Position numbers and translations under genes: made by a program. From assembly GCF_030684315.1 (NCBI RefSeq), contig NW_026728203.1, positions 1-64,000 on the forward strand: DNA of 64,000 nt, given 5' to 3'. This document shows positions 1 to 41,912 of this stretch, one piece after another. The DNA comes from Stegostoma tigrinum (taxonomy: Eukaryota). Within the stretch, counting starts at the first letter, position 1, and every line of letters starts with the position of its first letter. The notes below the pieces were generated by a model, which did not search any database, had not been told where the DNA came from, and saw only the letters and a list, made by a program, of their open reading frames with translations.

Positions 1-2224
1 GCTCCCAGTCTCTTCAGGTTGGTGATGTGATCTCCCAGCTTCTTGATCATCTTCACTTGCTCATCCAAGTATTGCCTCTCCAGGAAGTCACACAGCTGGA
101 AGAGAAAATTAATCCAGAGGATCAAAAGTGTCTGAAAGTGACCCCCATGACAGATGTGACCATCACAACCAGGTGGAGGTCCACTGAGGTGATGCATTTG
201 TAAGTTTGTTTTAACAGCCTGCAGGAGGCTGGGAGAAGGTAATTGGATTTTTACCCAGAGAGTGCACAAACACACCACTTTCTTCCAAGAAGAAAGTTTA
301 CAAACTCACATGAGGGTCAGTGTGGCCAGAGGCGAGTTTGTGCAGATCCAGCAGACTCTGGTTCACATCCTTCTCCATCTGCAGAGCTCTCTGCATTGCC
401 TCCAGACCACTGCCCCACTCATCCTGCTCTGGCTTCTGGAGGGAGGGAAGCAGGAACAGAAAGCACAGTTCAGCAGGCAGTTGTATCATTAGTCTACATC
501 TGATCAGTTAGTTATCCCTCATCATTGTAGGGGAGGTACTGCAAACCAACTTTAATTTGAAGACAACAACTAGATTTTGTACTGAGGGAATAACAAATTT
601 TCTAAACACATTCTACTGTTAATGTAGATTCTCAGAATTCACATGTAGAGAATAGGTACCAATGGAAGTAGTTCCTGGCTTCACTATTGTGGTGTTAGAA
701 ACATCTTCCAGATTCAGAAAGGCTGGACACTGCTACTTTCCACAGTGCAACAATTTCCTGTCTTAGCTTTTGTTACCTCATTCTGTCTGAAGGAGAGTCA
801 TTCACATTGATATCTACTCACTATTCTGGTTCCTCTCAATTGCCCTCATAAGTGCAGAGTATTTCCTTTCAACCTAAAGGAATCCTATTTTGGTGAACAC
901 CCTCCCCTTCACACAGTATTTGTTCAAGGCTAAAGCTAAATAGATGGAGATACCAGTCGATTGTAGCTGCTCACAAAAAGCTGCAAACAGAAGGCTTCAG
1001 AATCTAACCTTAATGTCCTGCAGGAGGACTCGACCTCCACGTTTATTCTGGAATGCCATCAGTTTCTCAGCGTGTTCCCGTTCCTCATGGGACTGCTCCT
1101 TGAAGAACTCAGCAAAGTGATGCAGGGCAACATCATCCCGGTCAAAGTAAGAGAACTGTGGGAAGAGAGGCTGAAAGGAAACTGTCTGAAATTCATGAAT
1201 GACACTCCTCACTCTGGAACTAACCTGGGCACCATCTGGATTCCACATTTAAGTGGTTAAAAAAACAGACAAAGCAGGAAGTCACCTTCCATGGATGATG
1301 AAGGGGAGAGCTGTCTAGAGCCATTAGACATCCGTGCTCTGCAGGTTAGAAACACTATTGTTCAGGAGGTGGAGACCAGTTCGGCCCCTGTCCAACTGAA
1401 TGAAGGGACATGTGTTCATTAACACAACCAGAAAGCTCAGTCAGCAGTCTCATTATCACTATCACCCACCTGAATAACCGCAGTGTCCTACCACCCACTC
1501 CACAGAATTTTAACTGCTTTGTTAGAGAGAGAAAGAAAAAAAAACACATACATAGTCTGAAAATGTGCCCCTTTCCTCACATTGCATAGCTCAAAGCCAC
1601 TTCTGAGAAAGGGTCAATGGACCCAGAGCTTGGATTTCTTCCAGCTCTGTAGAGCTTTTCTAGCTATTTTTGTTAGTGTTTAATGTCTAGCAGCAGCTGT
1701 TCTTTTAGTTCAGGGAACTTGACATCTTGAGCACAAGACAGTCCGGTGAATAGGGCAAGGTTTTAAAAAAGGAGTATATTTGTGTCAGGAAAAGCTTTTG
1801 TTGAGAAAAGGAATACAACCAAAGTTTTACAAAAATTAATTATTGACCAAGACCAGATCATCCCTCCAGAGTTAGATGAAAAAAATCACCAAGGGTTACA
1901 TTGTCCAGAGACAGCAAGCTGGGCATCCACATCCAGGAGCCAGTTGGACATGAAGACAGTGGTCAAGTTTTGAACAGAGAGTCAGTGATAAGACCTGCAC
2001 TAGATTACAACAGGGGAAGGGCCACAGAAAATAATACATGTTACAGCTAATTCATTAACCCAGCATAAAAACCAAACAGGTCAACACTATCATAGCACAG
2101 GCTTCAATTCCACAAAGCTCACCATGGAGAGGTAAACATAGGAGGAATAGAGCTCCAGGTTGATCTGCTTGTTAACAGCATCCTCACAGTCCTGGTGGTA
2201 GTTCTGACACACTTGGGAAACCAT
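1..2224 (-). CDS. Ferritin heavy/middle-type subunit, array gene 1 (type A); exon 4 runs off the window start
   Basis: Exons 2123-2224 ([34 protein letters not shown]), 1009-1155 ([24 protein letters not shown]), 310-435 ([11 protein letters not shown]), <1-95 ([15 protein letters not shown]..). GT-AG phase-0 introns at the standard vertebrate ferritin positions. Confidence 0.95.
1601..1705 (+). mobile_element. Degenerate Penelope-like/hammerhead-type short repeat in intron 1 (homologues near 13404, 19494, 27584, 34321, 50772, 57578)
   Basis: CTGAGAAAGGGTCAATGGACCCAGAGC resembles a decayed CTGANGA-stem-GAAAC minimal hammerhead core followed by the same pyrimidine-rich tail in each copy. Confidence 0.45.
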
Positions 2225-2540
2225 CTTCACTATTCCTGCTCACAAGCACCAAGAAAACTCTAGAACTAAGTCTCTCTCTCCCACAGGCTCTTGTATTTAT
2301 AGTCCTGGGACCATCCTGCAGTCACACAGAGAGAGGCAGAACTGATGATGACTGACAGTTGCTGGTGGCCAATCAGGAACCACCCCTGCATACAGGCACC
2401 AATGAGAGAGAGGGGGAGGGTGTGTTAAGCAGAGCTGATCAGAGGTGGAGATGAGAGCCAGGTCTGGATGGTTATTCTGTGATTGGAACAGCAGGAGGCC
2501 ATTCGGCATCTCAAACCTTCTGCACCACTCAATCAGGTCA
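2225..2540 (-). promoter_or_regulatory. 5' UTR and proximal promoter of ferritin gene 1
   Basis: TATAAATA (minus strand) at 2294-2301, about 70 nt upstream of the ATG; CCAAT boxes at 2369-2373, 2399-2403 and 2482-2486; block conserved in genes 2, 3, 5, 7, 8. Confidence 0.75.
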
Positions 2541-2734
2541 TGGGTCATTTGGTTCTTTTTTAAAATAAGTCAATTTGGTTTGAGAAAAGTTTTCACATTT
2601 TTTTTAATTAAGGTGGTTGTGAGCAACTGCACGAGGGATTCAATGAGGAAGAGGGGCATCAGTTTCTCAGCTTGTTATGCTGGGATTTGGGAAAGAAAGT
2701 TGGGAAATTGTCTCTGGATCATAGAAAATTGTAA

Positions 2735-3066
2735 CAGTGTCAGCTGTGGAAAAGACAGGAAGGATGTTCCTGATTATGGGGGAGTTCAGGACCAGGGTTT
2801 GCAGTCTAAGGATACATTTAGAACTGAGGTGAGGAGAAATCTCTTCACCTCGGGGGGCGGGGTGGTGGATCCTGTGGAATTCTCTGCCACAGAAAAGGAT
2901 TGAAGCCAAAACAGGAATTGGGGAGAGCTTTGAGGGCTGGATCAAAAGGGAATGCAGAGAGGGTGAGAATATGGTGCTGAGTTATGGAATCAGCCACAAT
3001 CACATGGAATGGCAGAGCAGGCTGGAAGGGATGAATGGCCGACTCAACATTTATTTTCTATGATTC
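2735..3066 (+). mobile_element. Old CR1-type LINE 3' fragment (homologues near 20640, 35456, 51910, 58725)
   Basis: Decayed ORF2 C-terminal DNA (aggagaaatctcttcacc..tgtggaattctctgccacag) ending in gaatggcc..ttctatg tail. Confidence 0.65.
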
Positions 3067-3089
3067 CACGTTTGTGCAACTAGCGCAGC

Positions 3090-3620
3090 CAGGGTCTTGT
3101 GGTTAAGGGGTCATGTCCCTAGCTGTGGACCAGGAGGCCTTGGTACAAGTTCCTACCAGATCCAGAGATCTTAAATCATCTCTACAGGCAGATTTAGAAA
3201 ACAACCAGAACAGGTACAGGCACAAAGGACCGAATGGCCTCCTGCTGTGCCATAACAATTCTCCGATTCTGTGGTGGGTCTGTACCTGAGCAGAATCTCC
3301 CTGCCTCCAGCTCCTGCCCGTGGATTGTCACCTCGCAGTGATGGAAAGCCTCGAGTGTTCTGTTGGTTCTCAGAGTGATAAGTGAAGAGGATTTCACCTC
3401 CTGGCAGGGCCACCCAGGATGGTACGATCGAGGGGAGGGTCCTGATAAAGTGCAATGCAAAACCAGTCCCCAGCGGCCATCCAGGTGGAAGATAGGTGTG
3501 TGCGATCGTTGGCTGTGACAGTGGGTGTTGGTCAGCAGTGGGGGGATCCCCAGTCAACATTTCTTTGCCAGTGGAACTGGGTCTACCTTGTGTAAAGGAC
3601 CATGTCTCTGCTGGCGTGTA
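3090..3620. mobile_element. Probable SINE-derived interspersed repeats (homologues near 21010, 35810, 52265, 59095)
   Basis: tRNA-like head tggttaagggg..ggtacaagttcc (degenerate A/B boxes) at about 3100-3155; GC-rich block repeated in A- and C-type spacers; no credible protein. Confidence 0.35.
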
Positions 3621-3719
3621 ACAGCTTTCCCACATTAAAGGTGCCTTCTACAGGTGGAATTCAAACCCCGTCCCCAAACTCTCAGAATTTCCTGAGTGGA
3701 AATTCAGAGCGTTTTTCAC

Positions 3720-4500
3720 AACAGGAGGCCGTTCAGCCCACCGTTCCTGTAATAGCTTCTGAAAGAGCTACCTGATTAGTCTCACTTTCCAGCCCTATCT
3801 CTGTCACTCTCTAAATTCGTCACTTCCAACGACATATCCAACTCTTGTTCTGAAACCAACCATGGAATCGACCTCCGTCACTCTCCCAGGCAGCACATTC
3901 CAAATCCGAACAACTTTCTGAGCAAAGAGTTTTCTAACCATTTCACTCTGATCTCCCCTACTGACAAACTGTGACCCCTCGTCACTGACAAGTCAACTGC
4001 TGAAATCAGAATATCCTGCTTTACTCTGACAAAATTGATCATAGTTTTGATCACGTCAATAAGGTCACCTACAAGGAGATTTCCCCCATTTTCCTTAATC
4101 TTTCCGTGTATCTAAAATTCCCCATTCCTGGGGTCATTGTAATAAATCACCTTTGAACACTTTTGAGGTTTTTCACATCCTTCCTTGAATGTCACGCCCA
4201 GAACTGAGTACATAATGGAAATGTGGTCTAACCAATGATTTGTAGAGGTGTAACATCAATTCGTTGCTTTTATACTCGATGCCTCAATTTGAAAACACAA
4301 GGTTCACAAAAGTGGCTCAATCTCCATTAATAACAGCTTCATCCTGCCTGACCACTTTCAGATAATCACATACTTGAAACTGAAAGTCGCTGAGCTCCTG
4401 TACTCACATCAGATTTGTAACATCGAGCCTGTTTTGACTTTGTGTTTCTTTGACAAAAATGCATTACTCACTTTTTTTTGTTGAAATTGGAAAGTGATTG
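3720..4500 (-). mobile_element. Ancient degraded CR1 LINE 3' fragment shared by the spacers (also about 14865-15640, 21650-23620, 28685-29430, 36440-37220, 52895-53680, 59735-61700)
   Basis: aggaggccgttcagccc tail motif and gcccagaactg..tgtggtctaacc segment alignable by eye to the young CR1 RT C-terminus (VRPHLEYCVQFW region). Confidence 0.6.
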
Positions 4501-5164
4501 GCAACATCAAACCTTGTGCAGTAAATATCTGTGTGTGCAGATATTGTCCTTTCCACAAAGAAATTGTTTTTGATATTATCCTGGATGATGTAGTTCTAAT
4601 GTGAAGATTGTCATCCCATTCTGCGCACAGTCCGAGATGATCATTGAGAAGAAATGGGTTCTTTCCTCTCTACCCTGTCAAATCCATTAATCCTCTGAAA
4701 ATTATCAATTACAGCCATCCCTTAACTTCCTACACAGAGGGACTGGACAAGCCGTTATCATGAATTAACCATCTCTCTGTCCAGGTTACTTCCAGAAATT
4801 CCGTGCATAACCATCTTTGGGTCGAACCTGCCAGAACTGTGCACTCCGGCTGTGGTTGAACAGGAACTTGACCATTTCACCAAAACCTCTTCATCCAGAG
4901 GTATTTGAACCCCTCAGAGATCAGGGCCAACATTAGTTTAGAGAATGTGGTGACTTGCCTTCTTGCATTACTGTTGCCCATTTGGTGTAATCAAACCCAT
5001 ACTGCTGTTAGGGAGGGAACCTGGGAGCGATGTTTCCAACACCAGCTGATCGGTGGTTTGGTGTAGAACGTGGTGTTAGAACATAGAACATAGAACAGTA
5101 CAGCACAGAACAGGCCCTTCAGCCCACAATGTTGTGCCGACCATTGATCCTCATGGATGCACCC

Positions 5165-8064
5165 TCAAATTTCTGTGACCATATGCATGTCCAGCAGTCT
5201 CTTAAATGACCCCAATGACCTTGCTTCCACAACTGCTGCTGGCAACGCATTCCATGCTCTCACAACTCTCTGCGTAAAGAACCTGCCTCTGACATCCCCT
5301 CTATACTTTCCACCAACCAGCTTAAAACTATGACCCCTCGTGCTAGCCATTTCTGCCCTGGGAAATAGTCTCTGGCTATCGACTCTATCTATGCCTCTCA
5401 TTATCTTGTATACCTCAATTAGGTCCCCTCTCCTCCTCCTTTTCTCCAATGAAAAGAGACCGAGCTCAGTCAACCTCTCTTCATAAGATAAGCCCTCCAG
5501 TCCAGGCAGCATCCTGGTAAACCTCCTCTGAACCCTCTCCAAAGCATCCACATCTTTCCTATAATAGGGCGCCCAGAACTGGACGCAGTATTCCAAGTGC
5601 GGTCTAACCAAAGTTTTATAGAGCTGCAACAAGATCTCACGACTCTTAAACTCAATCCCCCTGTTAATGAAAGCCAAAACACCATATGCTTTCTTAACAA
5701 CCCTGTCCACTTGGGTGGCCATTTTAAGGGATCTATGTATCTGCACACCAAGATCCCTCTGTTCCTCCACGCTGCCAAGAATCCTATCCTTAATCCTGTA
5801 CTCAGTTTTCAAATTCGACCTTCCAAAATGCATCACCTCGCATTTATCCAGGTTGAACTCCATCTGCCACCTCTCAGCCCATCTCTGCATCCTGTCAATG
5901 TCCCGCTGCAGCCTACAACAGCCCTCTACACTGTCAACGACACCTCCGACCTTTGTGTCGTCTGCAAACTTGCTGACCCATCCTTCAATTCCCTCGTCCA
6001 AGTCATTAATAAAAATTACAAACAGTAGAGGCCCAAGGACAGAGCCCTGTGGAACCCCACTCACCACTGACTTCCAGGCAGAATATTTTCCTTCTACTAC
6101 CACTCGCTGTCTTCTGTTGGCCAGCCAATTCTGTATCCAAGCAGCTAAGTTCCCCTGTATCCCATTCCTCCTGACCTTCTGAATGAGCCTTCCATGGGGA
6201 ACCTTATCAAATGCCTTACTGAAGTCCATATACACCACATCCACAGCTTGACCCTCATCAACCTTACTAGTCACATCCTCAAAAAACTCGATAAGGTTTG
6301 TAAGGCATGACCTACCCCTCACAAAGCCGTGTTGACTGTATTTGATCAAGCCATGCTCTTCCAGATGGTCATAAATCTTATCCCTCAGAATCCTTTCTAA
6401 CACCTTGCAGACGACAGACGTGAGACTTACCGGTCTATAATTGCCGGGGATTTCCCTATTTCCTTTCTTGAAGAGAGGAATTACATTTGCCTCTCTCCAG
6501 TCCTCAGGTACGACTCCAGTGGAGAGCGAGGATGCAAAGATCTTCGCAAGTGGCGAAGCAATTGCATTTCTCGCTTCCCAAAGCAGCCGAGGACAAATCT
6601 GATCCGGGCCTGGCGACTTGTCAATCTTAATGTTTGACAAAATTTTCAGTACATCAGCTTCCTCTATCTCTATCCATTCCAGCATGCACACCTGCTCTTC
6701 AAAAGGTTTCATTCACTACACAGGTCGTTTCTTTCGTAAAGACAGAAGCAAAAAACTCATTTAGGGCTTCCCCTACCTCCTCAGGCTCCACACACAAGTT
6801 CCCTATGCTATCCCTGATCGGCCCTACTCTTTCTTTGACCATTCTCTTATTCCTCACGTAAGTGTAAAATGCCTTTGTGTTTTCCCGGATTCCTTCTGCC
6901 AAGCCTTTCTCGTGCCCCCTCCTGGCTCTCCTCAGACCATTTTTGAGCTCCTTCCTTGCCTGCATGTAATCCTCTCTAGCTGAACTTGACCCTAGCTTCC
7001 TCCACCTTATGTAAGCTACCTTCTTCCTTTTCACTAGAAGCTCCACCGCTCTCGTCATCCAAGGTTCCTTTATCTTACCCCGTCTTGCCTGTCTCAGAGG
7101 GACATATTTACTCATCACTCCCAACAACTGTTCCTTAAACCATCTCCACATGTCTATAGTTCCCTTACCATGGAACAACTGCTCCCAGTCCATGCTTCCT
7201 AACTCGTGTCTAATCGCATCATAGTTTCCTCTTCCCCAATTAAATATCCTCCCATTCTGCCTAATCCTCTCCTTCTCCATAGCTATGTAGAATGAGAGAG
7301 TGTTATGGTCACTATCACCAAAATGCTCTCCCACCACAAGATCTGATACCTGCCCCGGCTCGTTTCCGAGCACCAAGTCTAGAATGGCCTCTCCCCTCGT
7401 CGGCCTGTCAACGTACTGCGTTAGGAAACCCTCCTGAACACACCTTACAAAAACAGCTCCATTCAAATCCTTCTGCTCGAAGGAGGTTCCAATCAATATT
7501 AGGAAAGTTAAAGTCACCCATTACAACAACCCTACTGCGTCCACACTTTTCCAAAATCTGTCGACCTATGCTTTCTACAATCTCCCTGCTGCTATTGGGG
7601 GGCCTGTAGTAAACCCCTAACGAGGTGACTACTCCCTTGCTGTTCCTAATTTCCACCCATACTGACTCAGTAGGCAGATCTTCCTCGACAATGGAAGCTT
7701 CTGTAGCTGTGATACCCTCTCTGATTAGTAGTGCTACACCCCCTCCTCTTTTTCCCCCCTCCCTATTCTTTTTAAATGTTCTAAACCCTGGAATATCCAG
7801 CAACCATTCCAGCCCATGAGAAACCCATGTCTCTGTTATGGCCACAACATCATAGCACCAGGTACTGATCCATGCTCTAAGTTCATCACTTTTATTCCTG
7901 ATACTCCTTGCATTAAAGCAAACACACTTTAACCGATCCCTTGGTTCCTTCCCAGGAAAATCCTTCCCACTAGCTGGTCTACCTCTTGCTACTGCCTCAC
8001 CTGCATCAACGCTCACCTCTGGTATACAGCTCAGGTTCCCACCCCCCTGCCATACTAGTTTAAA
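5165..8064 (-). pseudogene. CR1 ORF2 (APE endonuclease + reverse transcriptase), interrupted by two 1-bp insertions
   Basis: Motifs FNARS, ITETW, YYRPP, MGDFN, SDH, NYRPVSL, DFSKAFD, GVPQGSVLGP, FADD split over ORFs 7408-8175, 6699-7517 and 5165-6712; extra base in runs at 7465-7467 and 6701-6704. Confidence 0.9.
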
Positions 8065-8990
8065 CCCTCTCGAACTACTCGAGCAAACCTTCCACCCAGG
8101 ACATTGGTCCCCTTCCAGTTCAGATGCAACCCGTCCTTCTTGTACAGGTCCCACCTTCCCCAGAAGGCATCCCAATTATCAACATATCTGAAACCCTCCC
8201 TCCTACACCAGCTGCGTAGCCACGTGTTCAGCTGCGCCCGCTCCCTGTTCCTCACCTCGCTATCTCGTGGCACTGGTAGTAAACCAGAGAACACTACTCT
8301 GTTCGTCCTGCTCTGCAGCTTCCATCCTAACTCCCTGAAATCACTTTTTATATCCTCAAACCTATTTCTGGCTATATCATTTGTGCCAATATGTAACACG
8401 ATTTCTGGCTGTTCACCCTCCCCTTTCAGAACTTTATACACCCGATCGGAGACGTCCCGGACCCTGGCACCAGGGAGGCAACATACCTTCCGGGAATCCC
8501 GATCTTGCCCACAAAATCTCCTGTCGATTCCCCTAACTATCGAGTCCCCTACCACGAGTACTTTTCTATTCTGCCCCCTTCCCTTCTTTGCCACAGTGTC
8601 AGGCTCAGTGCCAGAGAACTGACTACTATGGCTTTCCTCTGGTAGGTCAACCCCCCCAGCAGTATCCAAAACGGTATACTTATTGCTGAGGGGAATGCCC
8701 ACAGGGGATCTCTGCACTGTCTGTCTGTCCCCTTTCCTCCCCCTAACTGTAACCCATCTATCCTCGTCCTGAGCCTTAGGAGTGACCAACTCCCGATAAC
8801 TCCTCTCAATTACCCCCTCTGCCTCCCGAATGATCCGTAGTTCATCCAGCTCCAGCTCCATTTCCCTAACACGGTTTTCAAGGAGCTGTAGCTGGGTGCA
8901 CTTCCCGCAGATGTAGCCAGCGGAGACGTGTGCCACATCTCCCAACTGCCACATTTTGCAGGAGGAGCAAGCAACTGCCCTAGCATCCAT
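8055..8990 (-). CDS. CR1 ORF1p: CxxC..CxxC zinc finger, coiled coil and SGNH/GDSL esterase domain
   Basis: 311-aa open ORF: CSSC..CGKC, heptad LQLLENRVREMELELDEL, VGDS, HIGTND, DGLH motifs typical of esterase-type CR1 ORF1. Confidence 0.9.
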   Translation of the reverse strand: MDARAVACSSCKMWQLGDVAHVSAGYICGKCTQLQLLENRVREMELELDELRIIREAEGVIERSYRELVTPKAQDEDRWVTVRGRKGDRQTVQRSPVGIPLSNKYTVLDTAGGVDLPEESHSSQFSGTEPDTVAKKGRGQNRKVLVVGDSIVRGIDRRFCGQDRDSRKVCCLPGARVRDVSDRVYKVLKGEGEQPEIVLHIGTNDIARNRFEDIKSDFRELGWKLQSRTNRVVFSGLLPVPRDSEVRNRERAQLNTWLRSWCRREGFRYVDNWDAFWGRWDLYKKDGLHLNWKGTNVLGGRFARVVREGLN

Positions 8991-9191
8991 ACCCCACTTA
9001 TCTGAACACCCACTCAGTACTAAAGCAGAAAGCTCACTTCAAGTAATAATAACAAATTAATAACAAACTTATGTTCAATAGAGAAAGTTTAGAATGAACC
9101 TTACCTTATTAACTAGGTTAGAGGAGGAGGGCGGGTGGGAGACACTACAGTTGTAGAGTCTCGGGTTAAGCCGCCTTGCTGATATATATGG

Positions 9192-9600
9192 TCACTGCTT
9201 TCCTTCCCGGCTGCCCCTCTGGTCCTCGTCACTTCCTCTGATGCTCCCGCTCCTTCTCTGAAAGAGCAAAAAAAAACACCGCTGCCCGCTACCGGTAAGT
9301 AATTTTAAAAATAAACTGCTTTACCTTAGCTGCAGTCTTCCGGGTCCGTCTTGCCTCCGCTGCTGCTCGCACTCAAAAAGGCCGTTGGCGTCGAAGGGTG
9401 AGTATTTATACTCACTGCTTTCCTTCCCGGCTGCCCCTCTGGTCCTCGTCACTTCCTCTGATGCTCCCGCTCCTTCTCTGAAAGAGCAAAAAAAAACACC
9501 GCTGCCCGCTACCGGTAAGTAGTTTTAAAAATAAACTGCTTTACCTTAGCTGCAGTCTTCCGGGTCCGTCTTGCCTCCGCTGCTGCTCGCACTCAAAAAG
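9192..9600. repeat. Two 189-bp direct repeats (period 220) forming the LINE 5' end
   Basis: 9192-9380 and 9412-9600 match except one substitution (aattttaaaa vs agttttaaaa). Confidence 0.9.
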
Positions 9601-9886
9601 TTCCCACATATCATCTGCCCTTGTCCGATGGAAAGTAGTTACGGTTTTAAGAAGTTGGCTGAGGAGCTTTGGTGGATTCCTACAGCATTTGGTACATGGT
9701 ATATATTGCAGTCTCTGCGTATGTCAGTGGTGGAAGGATAGACGAAAGTGGCTGCTCGTTTGCTGGAGGCTGTCAACATTCTGGAGTGTTAGACTGACAC
9801 CTGTAATCCTGATACTGTCTGACTTGACAGAATTTCATGCACATCATTCTCTTTCCAGAAGAGATGGTCCAAACAAGCCTCTTCTG

Positions 9887-10055
9887 GTTCACTAATGTCC
9901 TTGTTCGTAAGAAACTGCCATCCTTACCTGATCGGGCCTTTGCGTAACGCCACAGGCAGAGCAAAGGGGTTTAATTTGAATTACTCATGGGCTGGGTGGG
10001 TAATCAGAGATGGATAATAAATGCTGCCTGTCAGTGATAGCCTGATCCTGTTAAA
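9887..10055 (+). mobile_element. Old SINE/L2-like 3' fragment (homologues near 16515, 24525, 31500, 42608, 47795, 54550, 62610)
   Basis: ggttcactaatgtcc..ccatccttacctg..ggataataaatgctg block recurring in every spacer; family assignment is tentative. Confidence 0.45.
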
Positions 10056-11078
10056 GCACTTACACAAACCAGTCACATTGTAATTCAGGGCTGATTGATA
10101 GTGATTAGGCCACCACAGTGCACTGTTTGGAGTCACAGGTCAGCCAGATCAGCTCTCCTGCTGAAGATTAATAAACGTAAAAATTGGAACTGCCGATTCT
10201 GCACATGGTATTTGTATTTTAGCTTGATTTTCCACCAGGCATCCTCAGTATTTGTCACCTCTTCGTTGCAGGGTAATAATAGAAATTATCACACAGGGAA
10301 CGAGGTGGGCACCGCTTCATTCGCATGGCCGTTCCTAGACGTTAGCATTCTAAGAGAAGGTAGATTTTTCCTTCTCCTACATGTATAAAGGAAATACTGA
10401 AGAAACTAATTCCCTAGCTCTGGGAACAATGACATGAGCAATTGCTTATGTCAAAGAAAAAAAGAGACTGTGGAAAAGCATTGTATCTTAGTCTTGTAAG
10501 GAGGAATTTTACAAACTACTAAAATCACTAACATCTAGGCATGAGAACAAATTGCTGGAAAACACCTCACTGTCAGGCAACAAAGTCAATCAAGAGATGA
10601 TTGAGTGTCTCATGTCCAGGTTCTGTTCAACCCTTCTCCCTACCAATGCTGCCCAACCTGAGATTTCCCAGCAGGTTGTGTTCCTGGTTTCCAGAATCTC
10701 CTTATTTAAAAGAGATGCAAACACATGGCCAAGGACAGTGCATTAGATCAGTGCCTACCCTTTAGGCAAAGGAATGATTTCAGTCAGTGTATTGATTAGA
10801 AGCTGGTCCTGCAAACTTGTCCCTGTGAGTACATGTCAGTAATGCTGATTTATCTGTCAACAACCTTACCAGTTATGGAATTTCCAATTAAAGGATTGCC
10901 CACTCAATCCCCAGATACAGCAGAATCAAACACTGATCAAGGTACTGGGGCAGGCATTGAATCAAAAGCTTGTCACAAAGAACAAAGGATTGATGATCAG
11001 ACATTAAAACACAAAAAGCTCCAAGAACCAGAAGCTATGAAAATTACACACTGTGCTCAGTTCCATGGTGAACACTAT

Positions 11079-11084
11079 TTTAAT
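11079..11084 (-). terminator. Putative poly(A) signal ATTAAA of gene 2 (same motif at equivalent position in most copies)
   Basis: tttaat on + strand about 73 nt downstream of the stop codon in a conserved 3' block; altered to ATCAAA in gene 3. Confidence 0.5.
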
Positions 11085-11156
11085 TTGCTCAGAGCACAAC
11101 TAGTCATTTAGTAGAATGAGGTCACCTTGTACAACAGATATAGATATTGACCCCAT

Positions 11157-14083
<2,927 letters not shown>

Positions 14084-17735: not shown

Positions 17736-20123
<2,388 letters not shown>

Positions 20124-20445
20124 CTTCACTATTCCTGCTCACAATCACAAGGACAACTCTGGAACAAAGGCCTCAATCCCCAAAGCTGTTGTGTTTCTAC
20201 TCCTGAGACAACCGGCACTCACCCAGAGGGAGACCGAACTGATGATGACTGACAGTTGCTGCTGGCCAATCAGGAACCACCCCTGCATACAGGCACCAAT
20301 GAGAGAGAGGGGGAGGGTGTGTTAAGCAGAGCTGATCAGAGGTGGAGATGAGAGTCAGGTCTGGATGGTTATTCTGTGATTGGAACAGCAGGAGGCCATT
20401 CGGCATCTCAAACCTTCTGCACCACTCACTCAGGTCAGAGATCAT
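20124..20445 (-). promoter_or_regulatory. Promoter of gene 3, TATA box degenerate
   Basis: TAGAAACA at 20192-20199 replaces TATAAATA; upstream TGACTGACAG/CCAAT block conserved. Confidence 0.65.
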
Positions 20446-22238
20446 TTGGTTCTTTTCTGAAAGAAGTAAATATGGTTTGAGAAAAGATTGCTCGTTTTGT
20501 TTTTAAATTATGGTGGTTGTGATCAACTGCAGAAGGGACTCATTGAGGAAGGGGAGTGTCAGTTTCTCAGCCTGTTGTGCTGGGATTTGGGAAAGAAAGG
20601 TGGGAAATTGGCTCGGGGTCATCGAAAATTGTCATAGTGTCAGCTGTGGAAAAGACAGGACGGATGTTCCTGATGATGGAAAAGTTTAGGACCAGGGGTC
20701 ACAGCCTAAGGACACATTTAGGACTGAGATGAGGAGAAATCTCTTCACCGAGAGAGTGGGGGTCCTGTGGAATTCTCTGCCACAGAAAACATTTGAGGCC
20801 AAAACTTTGAATTTTTTCCAGGAGCAGTTGGGTGTAGCTTTGAGGGCTGAAGGGATCAAAGAGTATGGAGAGAGAGTGGGAAGATGGGACTGAGTTATGG
20901 AATCAGCCACAATCACATGGAATGGCAGAGCAGTCTGGAGGGGTCTGAATGGCCGAATCCAACAATTTTTTTTCGATGATTCTAAGTTTGTACAACCAGT
21001 GCAGCCAGGGTATTGTGATTCAGGGGTAATGTCCCTAGCTGTGGACCAGGAAGCCTTGGTCCAAGTCCATACCAGATCCAGAGATTTTGTAACATCTCTA
21101 CAGGCAGAATTAGAAAACAACCAGAACAGGTGCAGGCACAAAGGACCGAATGGCCGCCTGCTGTGCCACAACAATTCTCCGATTCTGTGATGGGTCTGTA
21201 CCTGAGCAGCATCTCCCTGCCTCCAGCTCCTGCCTGTGGATTGTCACCTCGCAGTGATGGAGAGCCTCGAGTGTTCTGTTGGTTCTGAGAGTGATACCTG
21301 AAGAGGATTTCACCTCCTGGCAGGGCCACCCAGGACGGTACGATCGAGGGGAGGGTCCTGGTAAAGTGCAATGCAAAACAAGTTCCCAACGGCCATCCAG
21401 GTGGAAGATAGGCGTGTGCTATCGTTGGCTGTGACGGTGGGTGAAGGTCAGCAGTGGGGGGATCCCCAGTCAACATTTCTTTGCCAGTGGAACTGGGTCT
21501 ACCTTGTGTAAAGGACCATGTCTCTGCTGATGTGTAACAGCTTTCCCACATTAAAGGTGCCTTGTACAGGTGCCCACTGAGAGGAGTACAAAGCCCCTCT
21601 CCAAACTCTGAGAATTTCCTGGGGGAACATGCAGAGGATTTTTAATGATAGGAGGCCATTTGGCCCATCGTGCCTGATTCAGTTTCTGAAAGCATTCCAC
21701 ACCCAGCCCCACTCTCCAGCCCTATGTCTGTATCCCTCTAAATTTGCCACTTCCATATATGTATACAGCTGCTTTGCTAAAGCCACCTACGGAATCTGCG
21801 TCCATCACTCCTGTCAGCTACGCATACCAAACCCTACCAACTTTCTGAGTGAAGAGGTTTCTCCTCCTCTCACTGTGAGCTCCCTCACTGACAAATTGTG
21901 ACCCCTCGTCACTAACGTATCCACTGGTGAAAACAGAATATCCCCCTTTACCCTGACAGAATTGGTGATAATTTTGATCACTTCAACAAGTGCTCCTTGC
22001 TCCAAGGAGAATAAGCGCTATTTCTTTAATCTTTCCGTGTGTCTGAAATTCCCCATTCCAGGTGTCATTATTATAAATCACCTTTGAACTCTGTCCAGGG
22101 CTTGAATGCCCTTCCTTAAAAGCCACGCCCAGAACTGAGCACATCACTGCAAATGTGGTCTAACCAATGAGTTGTAGAGGGGTATCATCAATTCCTTGCT
22201 TTTATGCTCGATGCCTCAATTTGAAAACACAAGGTTCA

Positions 22239-23428
22239 TAGAACAATACAGCGCAGAACGGGCCCTTCGGCCCTCGATGTTGCGCCGACCTGTGAGCTAA
22301 TCCAAGCCCCACCTCCAACACAATCCCGTCACCATCCATATGCTTATCCAAGGACTGTTTAAATGCCCCTAACGTGGCTGAGTTAACTACATTGGCAGGC
22401 AGTGCTTTCCACGCCCTTACCACTCTCTGAGCAAAGAACCTGCCTCTGACAAATGTCTGAAATGTATCACCCCGCAATTTGTAGCTATGCCCCCTTGTAC
22501 AAGTTGAAGTCATCATCCTCGGAAAAAGACTCTCACTGTCCACCCTATCTAATCCTCTGATCATCTTGTATGTCTCTATTAAATCCCCTCTTAGCCTACT
22601 TCTCTCCAATGAGAACAGATCCAAGTCCCTCAGCGTTTCTTCATTGGGCCTGCGCTCCAGACCAGGCAACATCCTGGTAAATCTCCTCTGCACCTTTCCC
22701 AATGCTTCCACATCCTTCCTGTAATGGGGTGACCAGAACTGCACGCAATATTCCAAATGAGGCCGCACTAGCGTTTTGTACAGTTGCAGCATGACATCAC
22801 GGCTCCGGAACTCAATCGCTCTACCAATAAAACCTAACACACGGTAAGCCTTCTTATCAGCATTATCAACCTGGGTGACAACTTTCAGGGATCTATGTAC
22901 ATGGACACCAAGATCCATCTGCACATCCACACTGCCAAGAATCTTTCCATTGACCCGGTATTCTGCCTTCCTGTTATTCCCCCAAAATTGAATCAACTCA
23001 CATTTATCTGCATTGAACTCCATTTGCCACCTTTCAGCCCAATTCTGCAGTTTATCCAAGTCTCCCTGCAACGTGCAACATTCTTCCACCCCGTCCACCA
23101 CTCCACCGACTTTAGTGTCATCTGCAAACTTACTAACCCATCCACCTATGCCTGCGTCCAAGTCATTTATAAAAATGACAAACAGCAGTGGTCCTAAAGC
23201 AGATCCTTGAGGCACACTACCAGTGACCTGACTCCAGGCTGGATATTTTCCATCAACCACCACTCGTTGCCTTCTTACAGAAAGCCAGTTTCTAATCCAA
23301 ACTGCTAAATCTCCCTCAATCCTCTGCCTCTGTATTTTCTCCAATAGCCTACCATGTGGAACCTTATCAAAGGCTTTACTGAAGTCCATGTACACCACGT
23401 CAACTGCCCTTCCCTCATCCACATGCTT
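22239..23428 (-). mobile_element. 5'-truncated young CR1 (RT half of ORF2)
   Basis: ORF 22202-23422 with DFSKAFD, PQGSALGP, FADD; GGTTCA repeated at 22233-22238 and 23429-23434; empty site near 4300 (caaggttcacaaa). Confidence 0.92.
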
Positions 23429-25819
23429 GGTTCACCACAGCCTTCTCAATAACAGCATCATCTTGGCTGGTCACTTTCAGATAATCACATACTTGAAACC
23501 CAAAGTCTCTCTGCTCCTGTACTCACATCAGATTTGGAACATTGAGCCTGTTTTGTCTTTCTATGTTTCTCAAACAAAATGTGTTATTCACATATTTTTA
23601 GTGTTGAAATTAGAAAGTGATTGTCAAAGTCAAGCCTTACCCAATAAACATCTAACAGCACGTGCACATATTATCTTCTCCACAAAGAAGCTGTTTTTGA
23701 CACTATCCTGGATGATTTAGTTGTAATGTGAAAATTATAATCCTATTTTGCACACAGTCCTCAATGACCATAGACAAGAAACAGATTCTGTCTGTCCACT
23801 CTGTCAAATCCATTAATCCTCTTTGAAATTTCAAACACAGCCATCCCTTAACCTTCTACACAGAGGGACTGGGACAAACTGTTATCATCAATGAACCAGC
23901 TCTCTGTCCAAGTTCATTCCAGAAATTCTGTGCATAACCATCTTTGGGTCGAAGCTGTTAGAACTGAGCACTCCAGCTGTGGTTGAGCTAGAACTTGACA
24001 ATTTCACAAAAGAACCATCAGCCAGAGGTAGTTGAAACCCTCGGAGATCAGGCCTAACATTAGATGAGAAAATGTGGTGGCTTGCGTTCTTGAATTGCTG
24101 TTGCCCATTTGGTGTAGGCAGATCCCCAATGCTGTTCGGGAGGGAATTCCAGGATTCTGATCCAGCACACTAGGGGAATGGGACCATGTTTCCAACTCAG
24201 GATGGTGAATGGCTTGGTGTAGAACTTAGAGGCGGTTGTGTTCCATGTATTTGCTGCCCTTGTCCCATGGCAAGTAATGGGGGCTTTGGAAGGTGTTGTC
24301 TAGGGAGCTTTGGTGGATTTCTACAACATTTGGTGATAGTACACATTGCAGTCCCTGTGTGTCAGTGGTGGAAGGAGTGAATCTCGTGGCTGCTCTGAGC
24401 TGGCAACTGTTAAGCTTCTGGAGTGTGGGACTGATGCCCATTGTCCTGATTCTGTCTGAAAAACTCTCTTTGGGCATTATGAACCTAAAAATGAGCATGC
24501 AATTCCTAGTCTGAATAAAATATCCTTTTCACTGAAGTCATTCAGGGAAGGGAACTGCCAAACTGCCATCCTTACCTGGTCTGGCCAGTATATGACACCA
24601 AGCCTAAAGCACTGTAGTTGACTAATGGGCCCATGGGCAGTTCAGACAGAGGATAAATGCTGCCTGGTCAGTGACATCCTTATCCTGTCAAGGAATTGTC
24701 AGTGGTCACCCATTAGAAACCAGTGACTGATTGTGATTGACAGCAATGAGCTAGACCCAATGCAGCGTGTGTGGAGCCACATGGAGGCCAGATTACATCA
24801 GAAAGCTGATTTTCTTCACAATTAAATGTAAAGGAAATTGGAACTACTGACTTCTGCAAGTGGTATTTTGGTTTTTGCTTTATTGTCATCAGGTGTCCTC
24901 AGCATTTGTCACCTTTGCATTGCAGAGCAAGGACAGGAGTTACAGCAGATGCTTTAGAAGGTGGGCACTGCTTCATTGCCTAATAGAGGCCATAGTCATT
25001 AGCATTGTCAGGGAGAAAGCAGAGCTTTCATTCTACTGAATGGAAAGGACATACTAGAGAAACAATTCTCTAGCTCAGGAAACATGTAAATGGTAAGCAA
25101 TTGCAGAAAAGCAGGTGTACCTTGCACGATTGGTCAACTTTATATCCTTGTAATGAGGAATTTTGTGACCTATTAAAGTCAGTAGGATTTAAGCAAGAGA
25201 ACAAGTAGGTGCAAAACACCTCATGGCCTGGCAACAAAATCAGTCAAGAGATAAACACGTGTCTCGTGTCCCGGTTCTGTTCAACACTTCTCACTACCAA
25301 ACCTGAGATTTCCCAGCAGCTTTTGTTCCTGGTTTCCAGTGTCAGCTTGGTTTTTCCAAAAATGCTGAAGATTGAATGAATGGACAGGCCTTGGCAATGC
25401 CTAATGTTTAGGCACAGGACAGATTTCAGTCATGGTTTTGAGCCGAAGCTGGTCCTGAAAAATTGTCCTGGGAAAGCTGAGGACAGATTTTGTTCTGGCA
25501 TTGTCTGCAATGCAGATATTTGCCAGTTGTGGCATTTCCAAGGACAAGATTGCCCACTCAATCCCTACAGACTCTCAGCAGAAGCAAACACCGAGCAAAT
25601 TACTGGGGCAGGCATTGAATCAAAGGTTGCAAGAAAGAACAGAAAATGGATTTGATTACCAGATGTTAAAACACAAAAAACCTCCAAGAACCGGAAGCTA
25701 TGAAAATTACACACTGTACTCAGTTCCATGGTGAACACTCTTTTAATTTGCTCAGAGAACAACTAGTCATTTAGTAGAATGAGGTCACCATGTACAACAG
25801 ATATAGATATTGACCCCAT

Positions 25820-28228
25820 TCAACGGAGTGGCAGCCTGTCAAACATGTACTCTCCCATGCCATTGTCAGGGGCTCCCAGTCTCTTCAGGTTGGTGATGTG
25901 ATCTCCCAGCTTCTTGATCATCTTCACTTGCTTATCCAAGTAGTGCCTCTCCATGAAATCACAGCTGGAAGACAAAATTAATCCAACAAGGATCAAAAAA
26001 TGTCAGTGACCTCCCATGACAGAAGTGACCATCACCTCACTATGGGGGAGGGGCATGCAAGTGATGCCTTCACAAGGTTTTGTTTAAACATCCTGCAGGA
26101 GGCAGAGAGAAAAATAATTGGATTCCCCACCCTGGAAGTACACAAACAGATCACTTTCTTCCAGGAAAGGGATAAAACCTCACATGAGGGTCTATGTGGT
26201 CAGAGGCAAGTTTGTGCAGATCCAGCAGACTCTGGTTCACATCCTTCTCCATCTGCAGAGCTCTCTGCATCACCTCCAGACCATTGCCCCACTCATCCTG
26301 CTCTGGCTTCTGAAGGGAGGGAAGCAGGAACAGAAAGCACAGCTCAGCAGGCAGTTCTATCATTAGTCTACATCTGATCAGTTAGTTATCCCTCATCATT
26401 TCCAGGGGTTACATTCAGACAAAAAATTTTACTTGGATACAAAAACCCTCTAGATTTTATGCTGGTCTGAGAATAAAGAAATGTTAACATATCCCACTGT
26501 TACTGTGAATTCTGAAAGAAGTCGTATCTAGAATCAGTCGCAATGGAAGTAATCCCTTGCTTTACTGTTTGATGTAGTGACCAGAATGGTCCCAAGGCAT
26601 TACAAACCTCTTCTGGATGTAGTGAGGTTGGATGCTGCTGCTTTTTGTAGCTGCAAGTTCTCAGCCTTACCTTTTGTTACCTCACCTTGTCCATATAGAG
26701 TCACATACAGGGACATGTGCTCACCATCCAGTAGCCTGGATCATCAGAATTGCCTTCTGCTATTGAGTCACAAATGCAAAGTATTTCCCTTTTCCCTAAA
26801 CAAATCCTGTTTTGGTGAACAACTTGCCCTTGACATAGTATTTGATCAATCCTGAAGCTAAATAGATGGAGATACCAGTCGATTGTAGCTGCTCAAAAAG
26901 CTGCAAACAGACAGACATTCTCAGAATCCAACCTTGATGTCCTGCAGGAGGACTCAGCCTCCACGTTTATTCTGGAATGCCATCAGTTTCTCAGCATGTT
27001 CCCGCTCCTCATGGGACTGCTCCTTGAAGAACTCAGCAAAGTGATGGAGGGCAACATCATCCCGGTCAAAGAGAGAGAACTGCAAACAGACAAAATGGGA
27101 AGTAAATTTCACTCAATTCAGCTTGGTTTTGCTCACGAAATGGAAGTTAGATGGACAGTAAGAAGACAGGTATTTACATTTATGGTCATCCATAAACTAA
27201 ACTAGACAGACATTTGTTCAAACATCTAGAAATAAAGATTAAGTAGCACCCGCTACAACCGCTGGTCGGTGACTTGGTGAGACAGTGCACGGTGACGGTC
27301 ACAGCTGGCAACAGGCATTAGACATCCCTGCACTGCAGGTCAGAAACACTATTACCCAGTGCTGGAAGCCAATCAGGGCATTGTCCAACAGAACGAAGGG
27401 ACATGTGCATGTTGACCAAGAGAAGCTGAAATCTGAGCTCCTCACATTACCAACATCACTCATCTGATTTAGCCCCACTGTCCTAACACCTCATCTGCAC
27501 AGAGACAGTGACTGATTTTTGTTCCAGATAATCCATCTTGGGAGTGGAAAAAGTCTGCTCCTCATAATTAGCAACTAAAAACCATGAAGGAAAGGTCACT
27601 GGACCAAAAACAGGAACTTATTTCTCACCACAGATCCTACCAGACCCACTAAGCTTTTCCAGCAGCTCATTTTAGTCTTTTATTTCCAGTAGTTAATCAC
27701 AGTTAGGATGCTTATTAAAAAAAAGGCTTCATTAAAAGGACAAGATATAAAAAGTTAGATTTGGACTGATGCAGGCTTCCACAAGGATGTAAATGATTTC
27801 AAATATAAATGGGCCATTGATATCAACATGGAAGGAGGAGTTGAATTGAGAAGCAGAACCAGGCCATCCCTCAGCACCAAAAATGTGCTCTGCCCAGAAT
27901 TACAACATACTGGGGACTCCTAGACAAGAGCCAGCTCCAACACAAGACAAGCTTAAAATTGCTACAGAATTAGTATTAAGAGCACTCACAGGATTCATTC
28001 CAGGAAGGACAACAGACAAGATATATGGTAGTACTAAATCATTGAGCAAGAAGCCACTTAAAGGCTCAGTACAATCATATCACAGCCCTAACACTGAAAT
28101 AGACCATTCAAGATCACAAGTCTCACCATGGAGAGGTAAACATAGGAGGAATAAAGCTCCAGGTTGATCTGTTTGTTCACAGCATCCTCACAGTCCTTGT
28201 GGTAGGTCTGACACACTTGGGAGGCCAT
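25820..28228 (-). pseudogene. Ferritin pseudogene, gene 4 (type D)
   Basis: Exons 28127-28228, 26933-27079, 26184-26309, 25820-25964; in-frame TGA (CGA>TGA) at 26954-26956; 2-bp deletion at the start of exon 4 giving CTG TGA; promoter deletion near 28362. Confidence 0.9.
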
Positions 28229-37885: not shown

Positions 37886-40785
37886 TCAAATTTCTGTGAC
37901 CATATGCATGTCCAGCAGTCTCTTAAATGACCCCAATGACCTTGCTTCCACAACTGCTGCTGGCAACGCATTCCATGCTCTCACAACTCTCTGCGTAAAG
38001 AACCTGCCTCTGACATCCCCTCTATACTTTCCACCAACCAGCTTAAAACTATGACCCCTCGTGCTAGCCATTTCTGCCCTGGGAAATAGTCTCTGGCTAT
38101 CGACTCTATCTATGCCTCTCATTATCTTGTATACCTCAATTAGGTCCCCTCTCCTCCTCCTTTTCTCCAATGAAAAGAGACCGAGCTCAGTCAACCTCTC
38201 TTCATAAGATAAGCCCTCCAGTCCAGGCAGCATCCTGGTAAACCTCCTCTGAACCCTCTCCAAAGCATCCACATCTTTCCTATAATAGGGCGCCCAGAAC
38301 TGGACGCAGTATTCCAAGTGCGGTCTAACCAAAGTTTTATAGAGCTGCAACAAGATCTCACGACTCTTAAACTCAATCCCCCTGTTAATGAAAGCCAAAA
38401 CACCATATGCTTTCTTAACAACCCTGTCCACTTGGGTGGCCATTTTAAGGGATCTATGTATCTGCACACCAAGATCCCTCTGTTCCTCCACGCTGCCAAG
38501 AATCCTATCCTTAATCCTGTACTCAGTTTTCAAATTCGACCTTCCAAAATGCATCACCTCGCATTTATCCAGGTTGAACTCCATCTGCCACCTCTCAGCC
38601 CATCTCTGCATCCTGTCAATGTCCCGCTGCAGCCTACAACAGCCCTCTACACTGTCAACGACACCTCCGACCTTTGTGTCGTCTGCAAACTTGCTGACCC
38701 ATCCTTCAATTCCCTCGTCCAAGTCATTAATAAAAATTACAAACAGTAGAGGCCCAAGGACAGAGCCCTGTGGAACCCCACTCACCACTGACTTCCAGGC
38801 AGAATATTTTCCTTCTACTACCACTCGCTGTCTTCTGTTGGCCAGCCAATTCTGTATCCAAGCAGCTAAGTTCCCCTGTATCCCATTCCTCCTGACCTTC
38901 TGAATGAGCCTTCCATGGGGAACCTTATCAAATGCCTTACTGAAGTCCATATACACCACATCCACAGCTTGACCCTCATCAACCTTACTAGTCACATCCT
39001 CAAAAAACTCGATAAGGTTTGTAAGGCATGACCTACCCCTCACAAAGCCGTGTTGACTGTATTTGATCAAGCCATGCTCTTCCAGATGGTCATAAATCTT
39101 ATCCCTCAGAATCCTTTCTAACACCTTGCAGACGACAGACGTGAGACTTACCGGTCTATAATTGCCGGGGATTTCCCTATTTCCTTTCTTGAAGAGAGGA
39201 ATTACATTTGCCTCTCTCCAGTCCTCAGGTACGACTCCAGTGGAGAGCGAGGATGCAAAGATCTTCGCAAGTGGCGAAGCAATTGCATTTCTCGCTTCCC
39301 AAAGCAGCCGAGGACAAATCTGATCCGGGCCTGGCGACTTGTCAATCTTAATGTTTGACAAAATTTTCAGTACATCAGCTTCCTCTATCTCTATCCATTC
39401 CAGCATGCACACCTGCTCTTCAAAAGGTTTCATTCACTACACAGGTCGTTTCTTTCGTAAAGACAGAAGCAAAAAACTCATTTAGGGCTTCCCCTACCTC
39501 CTCAGGCTCCACACACAAGTTCCCTATGCTATCCCTGATCGGCCCTACTCTTTCTTTGACCATTCTCTTATTCCTCACGTAAGTGTAAAATGCCTTTGTG
39601 TTTTCCCGGATTCCTTCTGCCAAGCCTTTCTCGTGCCCCCTCCTGGCTCTCCTCAGACCATTTTTGAGCTCCTTCCTTGCCTGCATGTAATCCTCTCTAG
39701 CTGAACTTGACCCTAGCTTCCTCCACCTTATGTAAGCTACCTTCTTCCTTTTCACTAGAAGCTCCACCGCTCTCGTCATCCAAGGTTCCTTTATCTTACC
39801 CCGTCTTGCCTGTCTCAGAGGGACATATTTACTCATCACTCCCAACAACTGTTCCTTAAACCATCTCCACATGTCTATAGTTCCCTTACCATGGAACAAC
39901 TGCTCCCAGTCCATGCTTCCTAACTCGTGTCTAATCGCATCATAGTTTCCTCTTCCCCAATTAAATATCCTCCCATTCTGCCTAATCCTCTCCTTCTCCA
40001 TAGCTATGTAGAATGAGAGAGTGTTATGGTCACTATCACCAAAATGCTCTCCCACCACAAGATCTGATACCTGCCCCGGCTCGTTTCCGAGCACCAAGTC
40101 TAGAATGGCCTCTCCCCTCGTCGGCCTGTCAACGTACTGCGTTAGGAAACCCTCCTGAACACACCTTACAAAAACAGCTCCATTCAAATCCTTCTGCTCG
40201 AAGGAGGTTCCAATCAATATTAGGAAAGTTAAAGTCACCCATTACAACAACCCTACTGCGTCCACACTTTTCCAAAATCTGTCGACCTATGCTTTCTACA
40301 ATCTCCCTGCTGCTATTGGGGGGCCTGTAGTAAACCCCTAACGAGGTGACTACTCCCTTGCTGTTCCTAATTTCCACCCATACTGACTCAGTAGGCAGAT
40401 CTTCCTCGACAATGGAAGCTTCTGTAGCTGTGATACCCTCTCTGATTAGTAGTGCTACACCCCCTCCTCTTTTTCCCCCCTCCCTATTCTTTTTAAATGT
40501 TCTAAACCCTGGAATATCCAGCAACCATTCCAGCCCATGAGAAACCCATGTCTCTGTTATGGCCACAACATCATAGCACCAGGTACTGATCCATGCTCTA
40601 AGTTCATCACTTTTATTCCTGATACTCCTTGCATTAAAGCAAACACACTTTAACCGATCCCTTGGTTCCTTCCCAGGAAAATCCTTCCCACTAGCTGGTC
40701 TACCTCTTGCTACTGCCTCACCTGCATCAACGCTCACCTCTGGTATACAGCTCAGGTTCCCACCCCCCTGCCATACTAGTTTAAA
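37886..40785 (-). pseudogene. CR1 ORF2 (APE + RT) with the same two frameshifts
   Basis: ORFs 40129-40896, 39420-40238, 37886-39433 identical to copy 1. Confidence 0.9.
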
Positions 40786-41711: not shown

Positions 41712-41912
41712 ACCCCACTTATCTGAACACCCACTCAGTACTAAAGCAGAAAGCTCACTTCAAGTAATAATAACAAATTAATAACAAACTTATGTTCAAT
41801 AGAGAAAGTTTAGAATGAACCTTACCTTATTAACTAGGTTAGAGGAGGAGGGCGGGTGGGAGACACTACAGTTGTAGAGTCTCGGGTTAAGCCGCCTTGC
41901 TGATATATATGG

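Follow-up and report, generated by a model that had tools for sequence, protein, structure and literature searches.

Probable programmed −1 ribosomal frameshifting at the ORF1-ORF2 junction of vertebrate CR1 LINEs with an esterase ORF1

How do ribosomes reach the second open reading frame of a LINE that offers no start codon for it? In most vertebrates, members of the CR1 group dominate among the retrotransposons according to the abstract of PMC13343379, and the mode of LINE ORF2 translation is described as unclear in the sections of PMC3708506 covered here. On the minus strand of a 64,000-nt stretch of DNA, analysed as a whole and called the window below, a full-length CR1 LINE has its ORF1 stop codon directly behind U_UUA_AAC, and ORF2 follows in the −1 frame. 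We propose from sequence comparisons, with a probability of roughly 85%, that CR1 LINEs with an esterase ORF1 express ORF2 by programmed −1 ribosomal frameshifting, which would explain why ORF2 has no start codon of its own. The features of the element are as follows.

5078..9599, minus strand: full-length CR1 LINE of 4,522 nt, with boundaries set against a paralogous site without the element near 54253-54265
5075-5077 and 9600-9602: probable 3-nt target duplication, GTT, in the flanks of the LINE
8991..9599, minus strand: 5′ UTR without ATG
8055..8990, minus strand: ORF1, 311 aa, from ATG at 8990 to TAG at 8057-8055, with the C-terminus G-L-N-stop
8109..8552, minus strand: SGNH/GDSL esterase domain, residues 147-294 (Pfam PF13472, E 1.4e-13; PDB 4C1B, E 8e-43)
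8061..8067, minus strand: second in-phase heptamer G_GGU_UUA, overlapping the slippery heptamer below
8058..8064, minus strand: slippery heptamer U_UUA_AAC in the X_XXY_YYZ phase, from the sequence and its conservation in relatives
8055..8057, minus strand: ORF1 stop UAG directly 3′ of the heptamer (UAG, UAA or UGA in relatives)
8038..8047, minus strand: G-rich tract G6-U-G3, 10 nt after the heptamer, a candidate stimulator
7915..8057, minus strand: −1-frame linker from the shift site to the first endonuclease motif, without stop or AUG
7519..7521, minus strand: first in-frame ORF2 AUG (MGDFN), deep within the endonuclease
5165..8057, minus strand: ORF2 with linker, APE endonuclease and reverse transcriptase (RT), and two +1 breaks near 7460 and 6705
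5744..6469, minus strand: RT domain (Pfam PF00078, E 2e-35)
5078..5164, minus strand: 3′ UTR with short GTTCTAT repeats at its end and no poly(A)
40779..40785, minus strand: the same heptamer in a duplicate element (37799-42320), part of a segmental duplicate

The 5′ UTR holds a tandem duplication with a 220-nt unit (9599-9403 and 9380-9183 match at 98%), and ORF1 is laid out as a Cys motif, a coiled coil, a disordered linker and an SGNH esterase. The best match to ORF1 was a RefSeq protein of Stegostoma tigrinum (zebra shark), at 99%, and an esterase tree made by a quick method placed it among shark and amniote sequences and away from the L2-type ones. A 3′ end of short tandem repeats without poly(A) is a CR1 feature. 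Within the CR1 group, poly(A) is found only in Zenon according to the main text of PMC13343379. By its ORF1 and ORF2 domains and its 3′ end, not by an RT tree, the element belongs with the esterase-type vertebrate CR1s described in the main texts of PMC13343379 and PMC4120745. A domain search found no protease domain in its ORFs, and a scan for bacterial promoters and terminators, not applicable here, gave 0 matches.

The minus strand reads GAG GGU UUA AAC UAG at the end of ORF1, with U_UUA_AAC (8064-8058) in phase, as a preliminary description of this DNA had stated. Canonical heptamers occupy 3 of the 309 in-phase positions of ORF1, and 2 of these 3 lie at the junction; the overlapping G_GGU_UUA, which we take to be the site of yeast L-A, was found in several shark and ray consensuses and is missing from the reptile ones. 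The −1 frame had been described as open into the endonuclease, and it is indeed open from 8175 to 7408, reading GFKLVWQGGGNL into the FNARS and ITETW motifs. Between the heptamer and FNARS this frame has 0 stops in 51 codons, as compared with 5 and 6 in 50 codons of the other frames. Its first AUG was located at 7521, in MGDFN and past both motifs, just where it had been placed before; an in-frame AUG ahead of the first endonuclease motif, as in L1, is absent from this element. When the two 1-bp insertions behind the +1 breaks are mended, the fusion of both ORFs is computed at 1,274 aa, the approximate length given earlier.

The motif alone is not beyond chance, since TTTAAACTAG with at most one mismatch occurs 4 times in the window against 3.99 expected; only its position and conservation are. 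The heptamer is present at 40779-40785 as well, as previously reported, but that copy is not independent and adds no support because it lies in the near-identical segmental duplicate of about 11.4 kb (offset 32721, a single mismatch before position 11429).

At the DNA level, we took junctions from the vertebrate consensuses in Supplementary Table 2 of PMC13343379, covering about the first 400 nt per cell and reading the rows by eye. The term 'ttaaactag' gave 14 matches, 11 of them ORF1-end junctions, and 'ttaaactaa', 'ttaaactga' and 'ttaaattag' gave 20 matches with 7 junctions; the AAT-TAG variant had 3 matches in that table, all away from a junction. Every one of the 18 consensus junctions found reads TTTAAAC with the stop adjoining it (TAG in 11, TAA in 6, TGA in 1), including the first T of the heptamer, which the search terms did not require. 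Their hosts are sharks, sawfish, stingray, chimaera, coelacanth, bowfin, teleost, bullfrog, bearded dragon, alligator and crocodile, and the heptamer is thus conserved in DNA across jawed vertebrates. The preliminary description had suggested a check on the conservation of TTTAAAC-TAG and of the −1 phase: the heptamer was kept, whereas the stop varies. Several of these consensuses are gappy, and because the rows were found through part of the motif, lineages without it could be missed. Anchors independent of the motif brought 3 distinct junctions into view, each of which has the heptamer, along with one row that ends before it. The files examined from the supplements of PMC4316615 (2 of 3), PMC2817409 (2 of 3) and PMC8665684 held no junctions, their matches being a decoy in the ORF2 C-terminus, so bird junctions were seen only at the protein level.

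The closest consensus, PriPec_CR1-7 of sawfish, has the same phase and spacing as the window, reads FKLVWQGDGNQ and shows no in-frame AUG in its 33 visible codons. It carries TTG in place of the ATG at 8053, which is out of frame in our element. As the spacing is identical there, a one-base error in the G run of this copy does not explain why the 8053 AUG is out of frame, and we rejected a copy-specific extra G. None of the sequence features named beforehand as counting against frameshifting, an AUG-initiated or in-frame ORF2 in the family consensus or a heptamer free to vary at synonymous positions, was seen for this CR1 family.

The C-termini of ORF1 homologues were compared at the protein level. 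Among the 120 matches listed, we counted the 94 with the DxxH region and left out the 26 without it. LN-stop ends 83 of the 94, 80 at equal distance from the catalytic His; 1 ends in IN, 5 have other endings and 5 read on, 3 of them through FKL. The hosts include sharks, rays, coelacanth, a teleost, frogs, turtles, lizards and a bird. In 47 representatives thinned from 120 LN/IN tails, a chemically mixed set of residues preceded LN (G, A, T, Y, F, S, C, H, N, D or L). The residues E, Q, K, M and W, whose codons cannot end in U, stood there in 0/47, compared with 18% over the eight positions before it (binomial 8e-5, with relatedness left out of account); E precedes LN in 3 of the 120 tails, and these three dropped out on thinning.

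Twenty records, picked by eye, that cross or precede the junction have a −1 frame reading FKL or VKL; they come from ray, tortoise, two birds, frog and other contigs. When both frames were fitted together, frog records agreed with the ORF1 P0109 at 25/25 positions and four records with P0354 at 22/25, as against at most 12/25 in a +1-frame control. The frog fit with P0109 forces G_UUA_AAY, as does the frog sequence P0139, and not U_UUA_AAC; G_UUA_AAC is presumably the site of equine arteritis virus. LN lies six residues further from His in the P0354 family, and its position is thus tied to the stop rather than to the fold.

A quick tree of 71 esterase domains, made with the tails left out, shows the ORF1 ending covarying among slippery-site peptides. 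LN ends 29 of the 33 rows of the vertebrate CR1 branch and none of the six rows of the L2-type branch, while another branch has QGN in 7/13 rows and yet another has xKN or xFL/FF at the equivalent place; in the xKN and xFL lineages the stop comes 1 to 11 codons later. With the vertebrate and L2-type groups set aside, a canonical heptamer fits 24/31 tails against a background of 19%, and it fits L2-type tails in 2/6 cases against 14%, in a 10-residue window that was chosen after inspection and with P values that ignore the relatedness of the sequences. The QGN, xKN and xFL endings would be peptides of other classic slippery heptamers, the codons of QGN and xKN being deduced from protein and most of these proteins being only putative members of CR1 elements.

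The sole DNA case of an alternative heptamer is L003, a CR1-like contig within an archaeal assembly. Its esterase ORF1 (hhalign 99%) ends T_TTT_TTA GTG TAA, with U_UUU_UUA at the aligned position and a −1 frame that is open for 1,003 codons; a 9-bp hairpin lies 11 nt downstream (z −2.3; 11 of 500 shuffles were as good). A GTDB scan with the endonuclease alignment gave 4 loci, namely L003, two loci without a junction and L004, whose non-esterase ORF1 overlaps in −1 and has no canonical heptamer at its end; the scan with the ORF1 alignment gave 0 loci.

Taken together, we infer from the comparisons that slippage occurs at the heptamer and yields a fusion protein. Most ribosomes would terminate ORF1 at the stop right after U_UUA_AAC, and a minority would shift back by one base on the heptamer and read on as ...EGLN/LVWQG..., passing the variable linker into the endonuclease and RT. 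The product would be a minor, Gag-Pol-like ORF1-ORF2 fusion of about 1,270 aa. A search for a natural single-ORF fusion of ORF1 and ORF2 found no fused family among 23 matches, a result of little weight; these were gene models of mutated stork copies, unrelated fusions and bacterial hydrolases.

ORF2 could instead be made as a separate protein by termination-reinitiation, either in the SART1 manner, at a UAAUG overlap, or in the L1 manner, at a near-cognate codon or variable AUG of the linker. TAATG, an in-frame stop-start overlap, does occur in 3 of the 18 consensus junctions (ScyCan_CR1-1a, SquAca_CR1-17a and SquAca_CR1-6c), and reinitiation is possibly real in such UAAUG lineages. In our element the near-cognates CUG 8034, AUA 8025 and GUG 8016 are in frame in the linker, where AUC also occurs, and L003 has an in-frame AUG about 30 nt past its stop. 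SART1 is a precedent, and the sections of PMC3708506 covered here contain the argument that ORF1p must be apart from ORF2p. Among the 120 ORF2 matches compared, 109 have a NARS-like motif and 103 of these have some Met upstream of it, in a set biased toward an upstream Met because gene callers need a start; the nearest such Met lies at 47 different distances and is absent in 6. Five amniote records, among the 11 without a NARS-like motif, begin at MGNK, past the first motif. However, the element reads UAGUA at its stop, its nearby AUG at 8053 is out of frame, and 15/18 junctions are without UAAUG. As reinitiation predicts neither an invariant heptamer nor switches between slippery-site peptides, we consider it improbable as the general route to ORF2.

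Leu-Asn might also be kept for the sake of the ORF1 protein, for packing or as a C-terminal motif, with ORF2 reached by splicing at the junction, by internal initiation or from an upstream −1-frame start. Among the LN-ending proteins selected for alignment, L310 and N311 do not vary; TTTAAACTAG closes with an AG that resembles an acceptor; and the −1 frame here is open for 37 codons upstream of the junction. Yet 4C1B, a homologous esterase from L2, stops about 2 residues short of the CR1 ORF1 end, and the L2-type clade is without the LN ending. In the predicted structure the last ORF1 helix ends at residue 307 and N311 has a pLDDT of 46, evidence that is weak at a terminal position, since low pLDDT is usual at protein termini. 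Constraint on the peptide would not fix the synonymous positions of the heptamer either. The stop varies while the heptamer is constant, so the acceptor AG is not kept: it is lost in the TAA and TGA lineages, and we rejected a splice acceptor at TAG. Upstream starts are excluded in five consensuses where, by eye, the −1 frame is closed by a stop a few codons before the heptamer and has no AUG between the two. This explanation thus seems very improbable to us, and the chance is slimmer still that the frames are joined at the site by polymerase slippage in U3A3, or by a single slip of the P-site tRNA-Asn with the stop in the A site. The stop adjacent to the heptamer in 18/18 junctions and the lack of a strong 3′ structure in our folds would suit such non-tandem slippage, but a single tRNA needs no conserved first heptamer position, which all 18 keep, and the stop further on in the xKN and xFL lineages does not fit. 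A U3A3 run is also short for slippage of a polymerase. We therefore retain tandem −1 slippage on the heptamer as the explanation.

Regarding its stimulator, the preliminary description had proposed that CAGG and CCTG, followed by TACC, form a hairpin or an H-type pseudoknot. These sequences are present, but the sequence 3′ of the heptamer does not fold better than shuffled versions of it (z +0.34 for 60 nt and −1.21 for 40 nt), and we rejected the pairing of 4+4 bp, geometrically possible as it is, as one of dozens of equally short combinations. Nor is the stem conserved, its 3′ arm reading CCAG in sawfish and CCAA in catshark. Rfam gave no match at the junction and one unrelated sub-threshold match. 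The ORF1-ORF2 fusion by −1 frameshifting proposed at the outset probably stands on comparative grounds, whereas its hairpin or pseudoknot part is unsupported. The junction is a real, deeply conserved feature that would work like a Gag-Pol −1 frameshift but is without the stable conserved hairpin or pseudoknot 5-9 nt downstream by which the canonical cassette is defined.

The pattern G5-N2-G3 has only one match in the whole element, the G-rich tract at 8038-8047. A run of at least 4 G within 10 nt of the stop was seen by eye in 14/18 consensus junctions and is missing in 4/18, and it shows in the −1 frame as FKLxxxG. Folding as a G-quadruplex came out ahead in one of three window lengths, weakly (−14.4 vs −12.9 kcal/mol), and the best long-range partner of the tract was a pyrimidine tract in the 5′ UTR (−27.6 vs −23.5 kcal/mol for the next region) in a screen without statistics. 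Synthetic G-quadruplexes stimulate frameshifting, and their natural use for it was not known at the time of a 2016 review, in the part of that review covered here (PMC5009743). In the weaker and more speculative part of our proposal, the stimulator would most likely be the adjacent stop together with the G tract, as a protein-binding site or a G-quadruplex, and not a local hairpin. The joint reading, an unreported LINE fusion strategy in which a vertebrate frameshift is driven by the adjacent stop and this G-rich motif rather than by a pseudoknot, is tentative and, taken as a whole, somewhat doubtful.

A few non-LTR elements of protists and insects have been proposed to use frameshifts. For CR1 we found no such report within the literature covered, which included the accessible parts of PMC3708506, PMC4255032, PMC2734521 and PMC3747384; an earlier remark in the founding CR1 papers or in Repbase/Dfam notes, outside this scope, is quite possible. 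The words 'frameshift', 'overlap' and 'slippery' do not occur in the main text of PMC13343379, 'frameshift' does not occur in the text of PMC3905857 available to us, and 'CR1' does not occur in the first 300,000 of the 449,034 characters of PMC5009743. The first 300,000 characters of PMC11835228 mention frameshifting only for retroviruses.

If ORF2 is expressed in this way, the esterase-endonuclease-RT fusion would, like Gag-Pol, tie the RT to the ORF1 particle, for which membrane binding has been proposed. Annotations that start ORF2 at the first AUG, losing the first endonuclease motif, would need correcting, and the fusion would define an intact CR1 and the design of a retrotransposition assay. 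Vertebrate genomes would then hold many natural frameshift signals, possibly with a new kind of stimulator. If the joint reading also holds, these LINEs would have an unreported Gag-Pol-like fusion strategy together with a natural frameshift stimulated by a G tract.

In its domains the element resembles the canonical vertebrate CR1 (PMC13343379; subgroup 7/type IVB in PMC4120745), with which it shares the esterase ORF1, the APE-RT ORF2 and a range from shark to bird, and the junction of sawfish PriPec_CR1-7 in PMC13343379 is nearly identical to its own. 'Frameshift' is absent from the main texts of both papers, and the expression mechanism is an addition of the present analysis. The only non-LTR recoding cases in the examined part of the Atkins review (PMC5009743) are HeT-A and TART of Drosophila; in HeT-A the shift is within gag and there is no RT, and TART has a +1-frame AUG after a spacer. 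SART1 and L1 likewise have a bicistronic LINE mRNA that needs little ORF2p, and three shark consensuses share UAAUG, but our element has no in-frame AUG at or after the stop, and its product would be a fusion instead of free ORF2p. Retroviral and Ty3-gypsy Gag-Pol and coronavirus ORF1a/1b likewise place an in-phase X_XXY_YYZ at the end of the first ORF, with the polymerase in the −1 frame, and U_UUA_AAC is the site of IBV (in the examined part of PMC5009743). In contrast to these systems, CR1 is a non-LTR element, its stop adjoins the heptamer, and no conserved pseudoknot or hairpin 5-9 nt downstream and no protease domain were found. PRRSV also has, instead of a fold, a short motif of low complexity some 10-11 nt beyond the shift site, where nsp1beta and PCBP act on CCCANCUCC (in the same part of PMC5009743); the CR1 motif differs in being G-rich and, by analogy, may be a binding site.

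In the window CR1, ORF2 carries an in-frame FKL..G motif close to its C-terminus that looks like the -1-frame reading of the ORF1/ORF2 junction. In bird CR1s, TTTAAAC encodes this C-terminal FKL..G motif, which acts as a decoy in motif searches. The two breaks in ORF2 lie inside short T runs and are common to the two duplicates of the element.

Window ~5330-5300, minus strand: in-frame FKL..G motif, ORF2 C-terminus
Window ~7460 and ~6705: ORF2 breaks

The 5′UTR of the element contains a tandem duplication and a pyrimidine tract. Of all segments of the CR1 element, this pyrimidine tract best complements the junction G tract. Tandem 5′UTR arrays occur chiefly in ORF1-less elements according to PMC13343379. 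The pyrimidine tract is also splice-acceptor-like.

Window 9599-9183, minus strand: tandemly duplicated 220-nt unit, CR1 5′UTR
Window 9141-9124, minus strand: pyrimidine tract, CR1 5′UTR

The CR1 was inserted into a separate multi-copy repeat family several kb long, and a CR1-free paralog of the insertion site is found near window 54253-54265. The window also harbors a second CR1 family, whose four copies are ~70% identical and lack the junction.

Window 1296-5073, 9600-12449 and 50472-57124: multi-copy repeat family around the CR1
Window 22237-23431, 29435-30594, 45740-46913 and 60322-61516: second CR1 family, 5′-truncated copies

Self-comparison revealed a mosaic organization of the window, which is built from near-identical segmental duplications of up to ~13 kb, with a single mismatch between duplicates over the first 11.4 kb. 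These duplications originated either from a very recent event or from assembly duplication.

Window 1-12971 vs 32722-45714: near-identical segmental duplication
Window 18475-25915 vs 56525-64000: near-identical segmental duplication

Outside the window, four contig loci (L001, L002, L003 and L004) and three proteins (P0008, P0122 and P0228) were animal LINE sequences under prokaryote names. They sit on contaminant contigs of bacterial and archaeal assemblies. In L003, a CR1-like contig in an archaeal assembly, the -1-frame ORF2 is open for 1,003 codons, and this locus would suit a frameshift reporter assay as a clean second test case. ORF1 of L004 is of the non-esterase type and is likewise overlapped by ORF2 in the -1 frame; no canonical heptamer was found near its stop codon.

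L003 480-521: U_UUU_UUA and 9-bp hairpin, esterase-ORF1 element
L004 330-430: ORF1/ORF2 overlap, -1 frame

Among the rows read from the consensus table in the PMC13343379 supplement, AldAff_Crack-2 starts with the end of an esterase ORF1 and the CR1 junction motif despite its Crack label, and this consensus may therefore be misclassified or chimeric.
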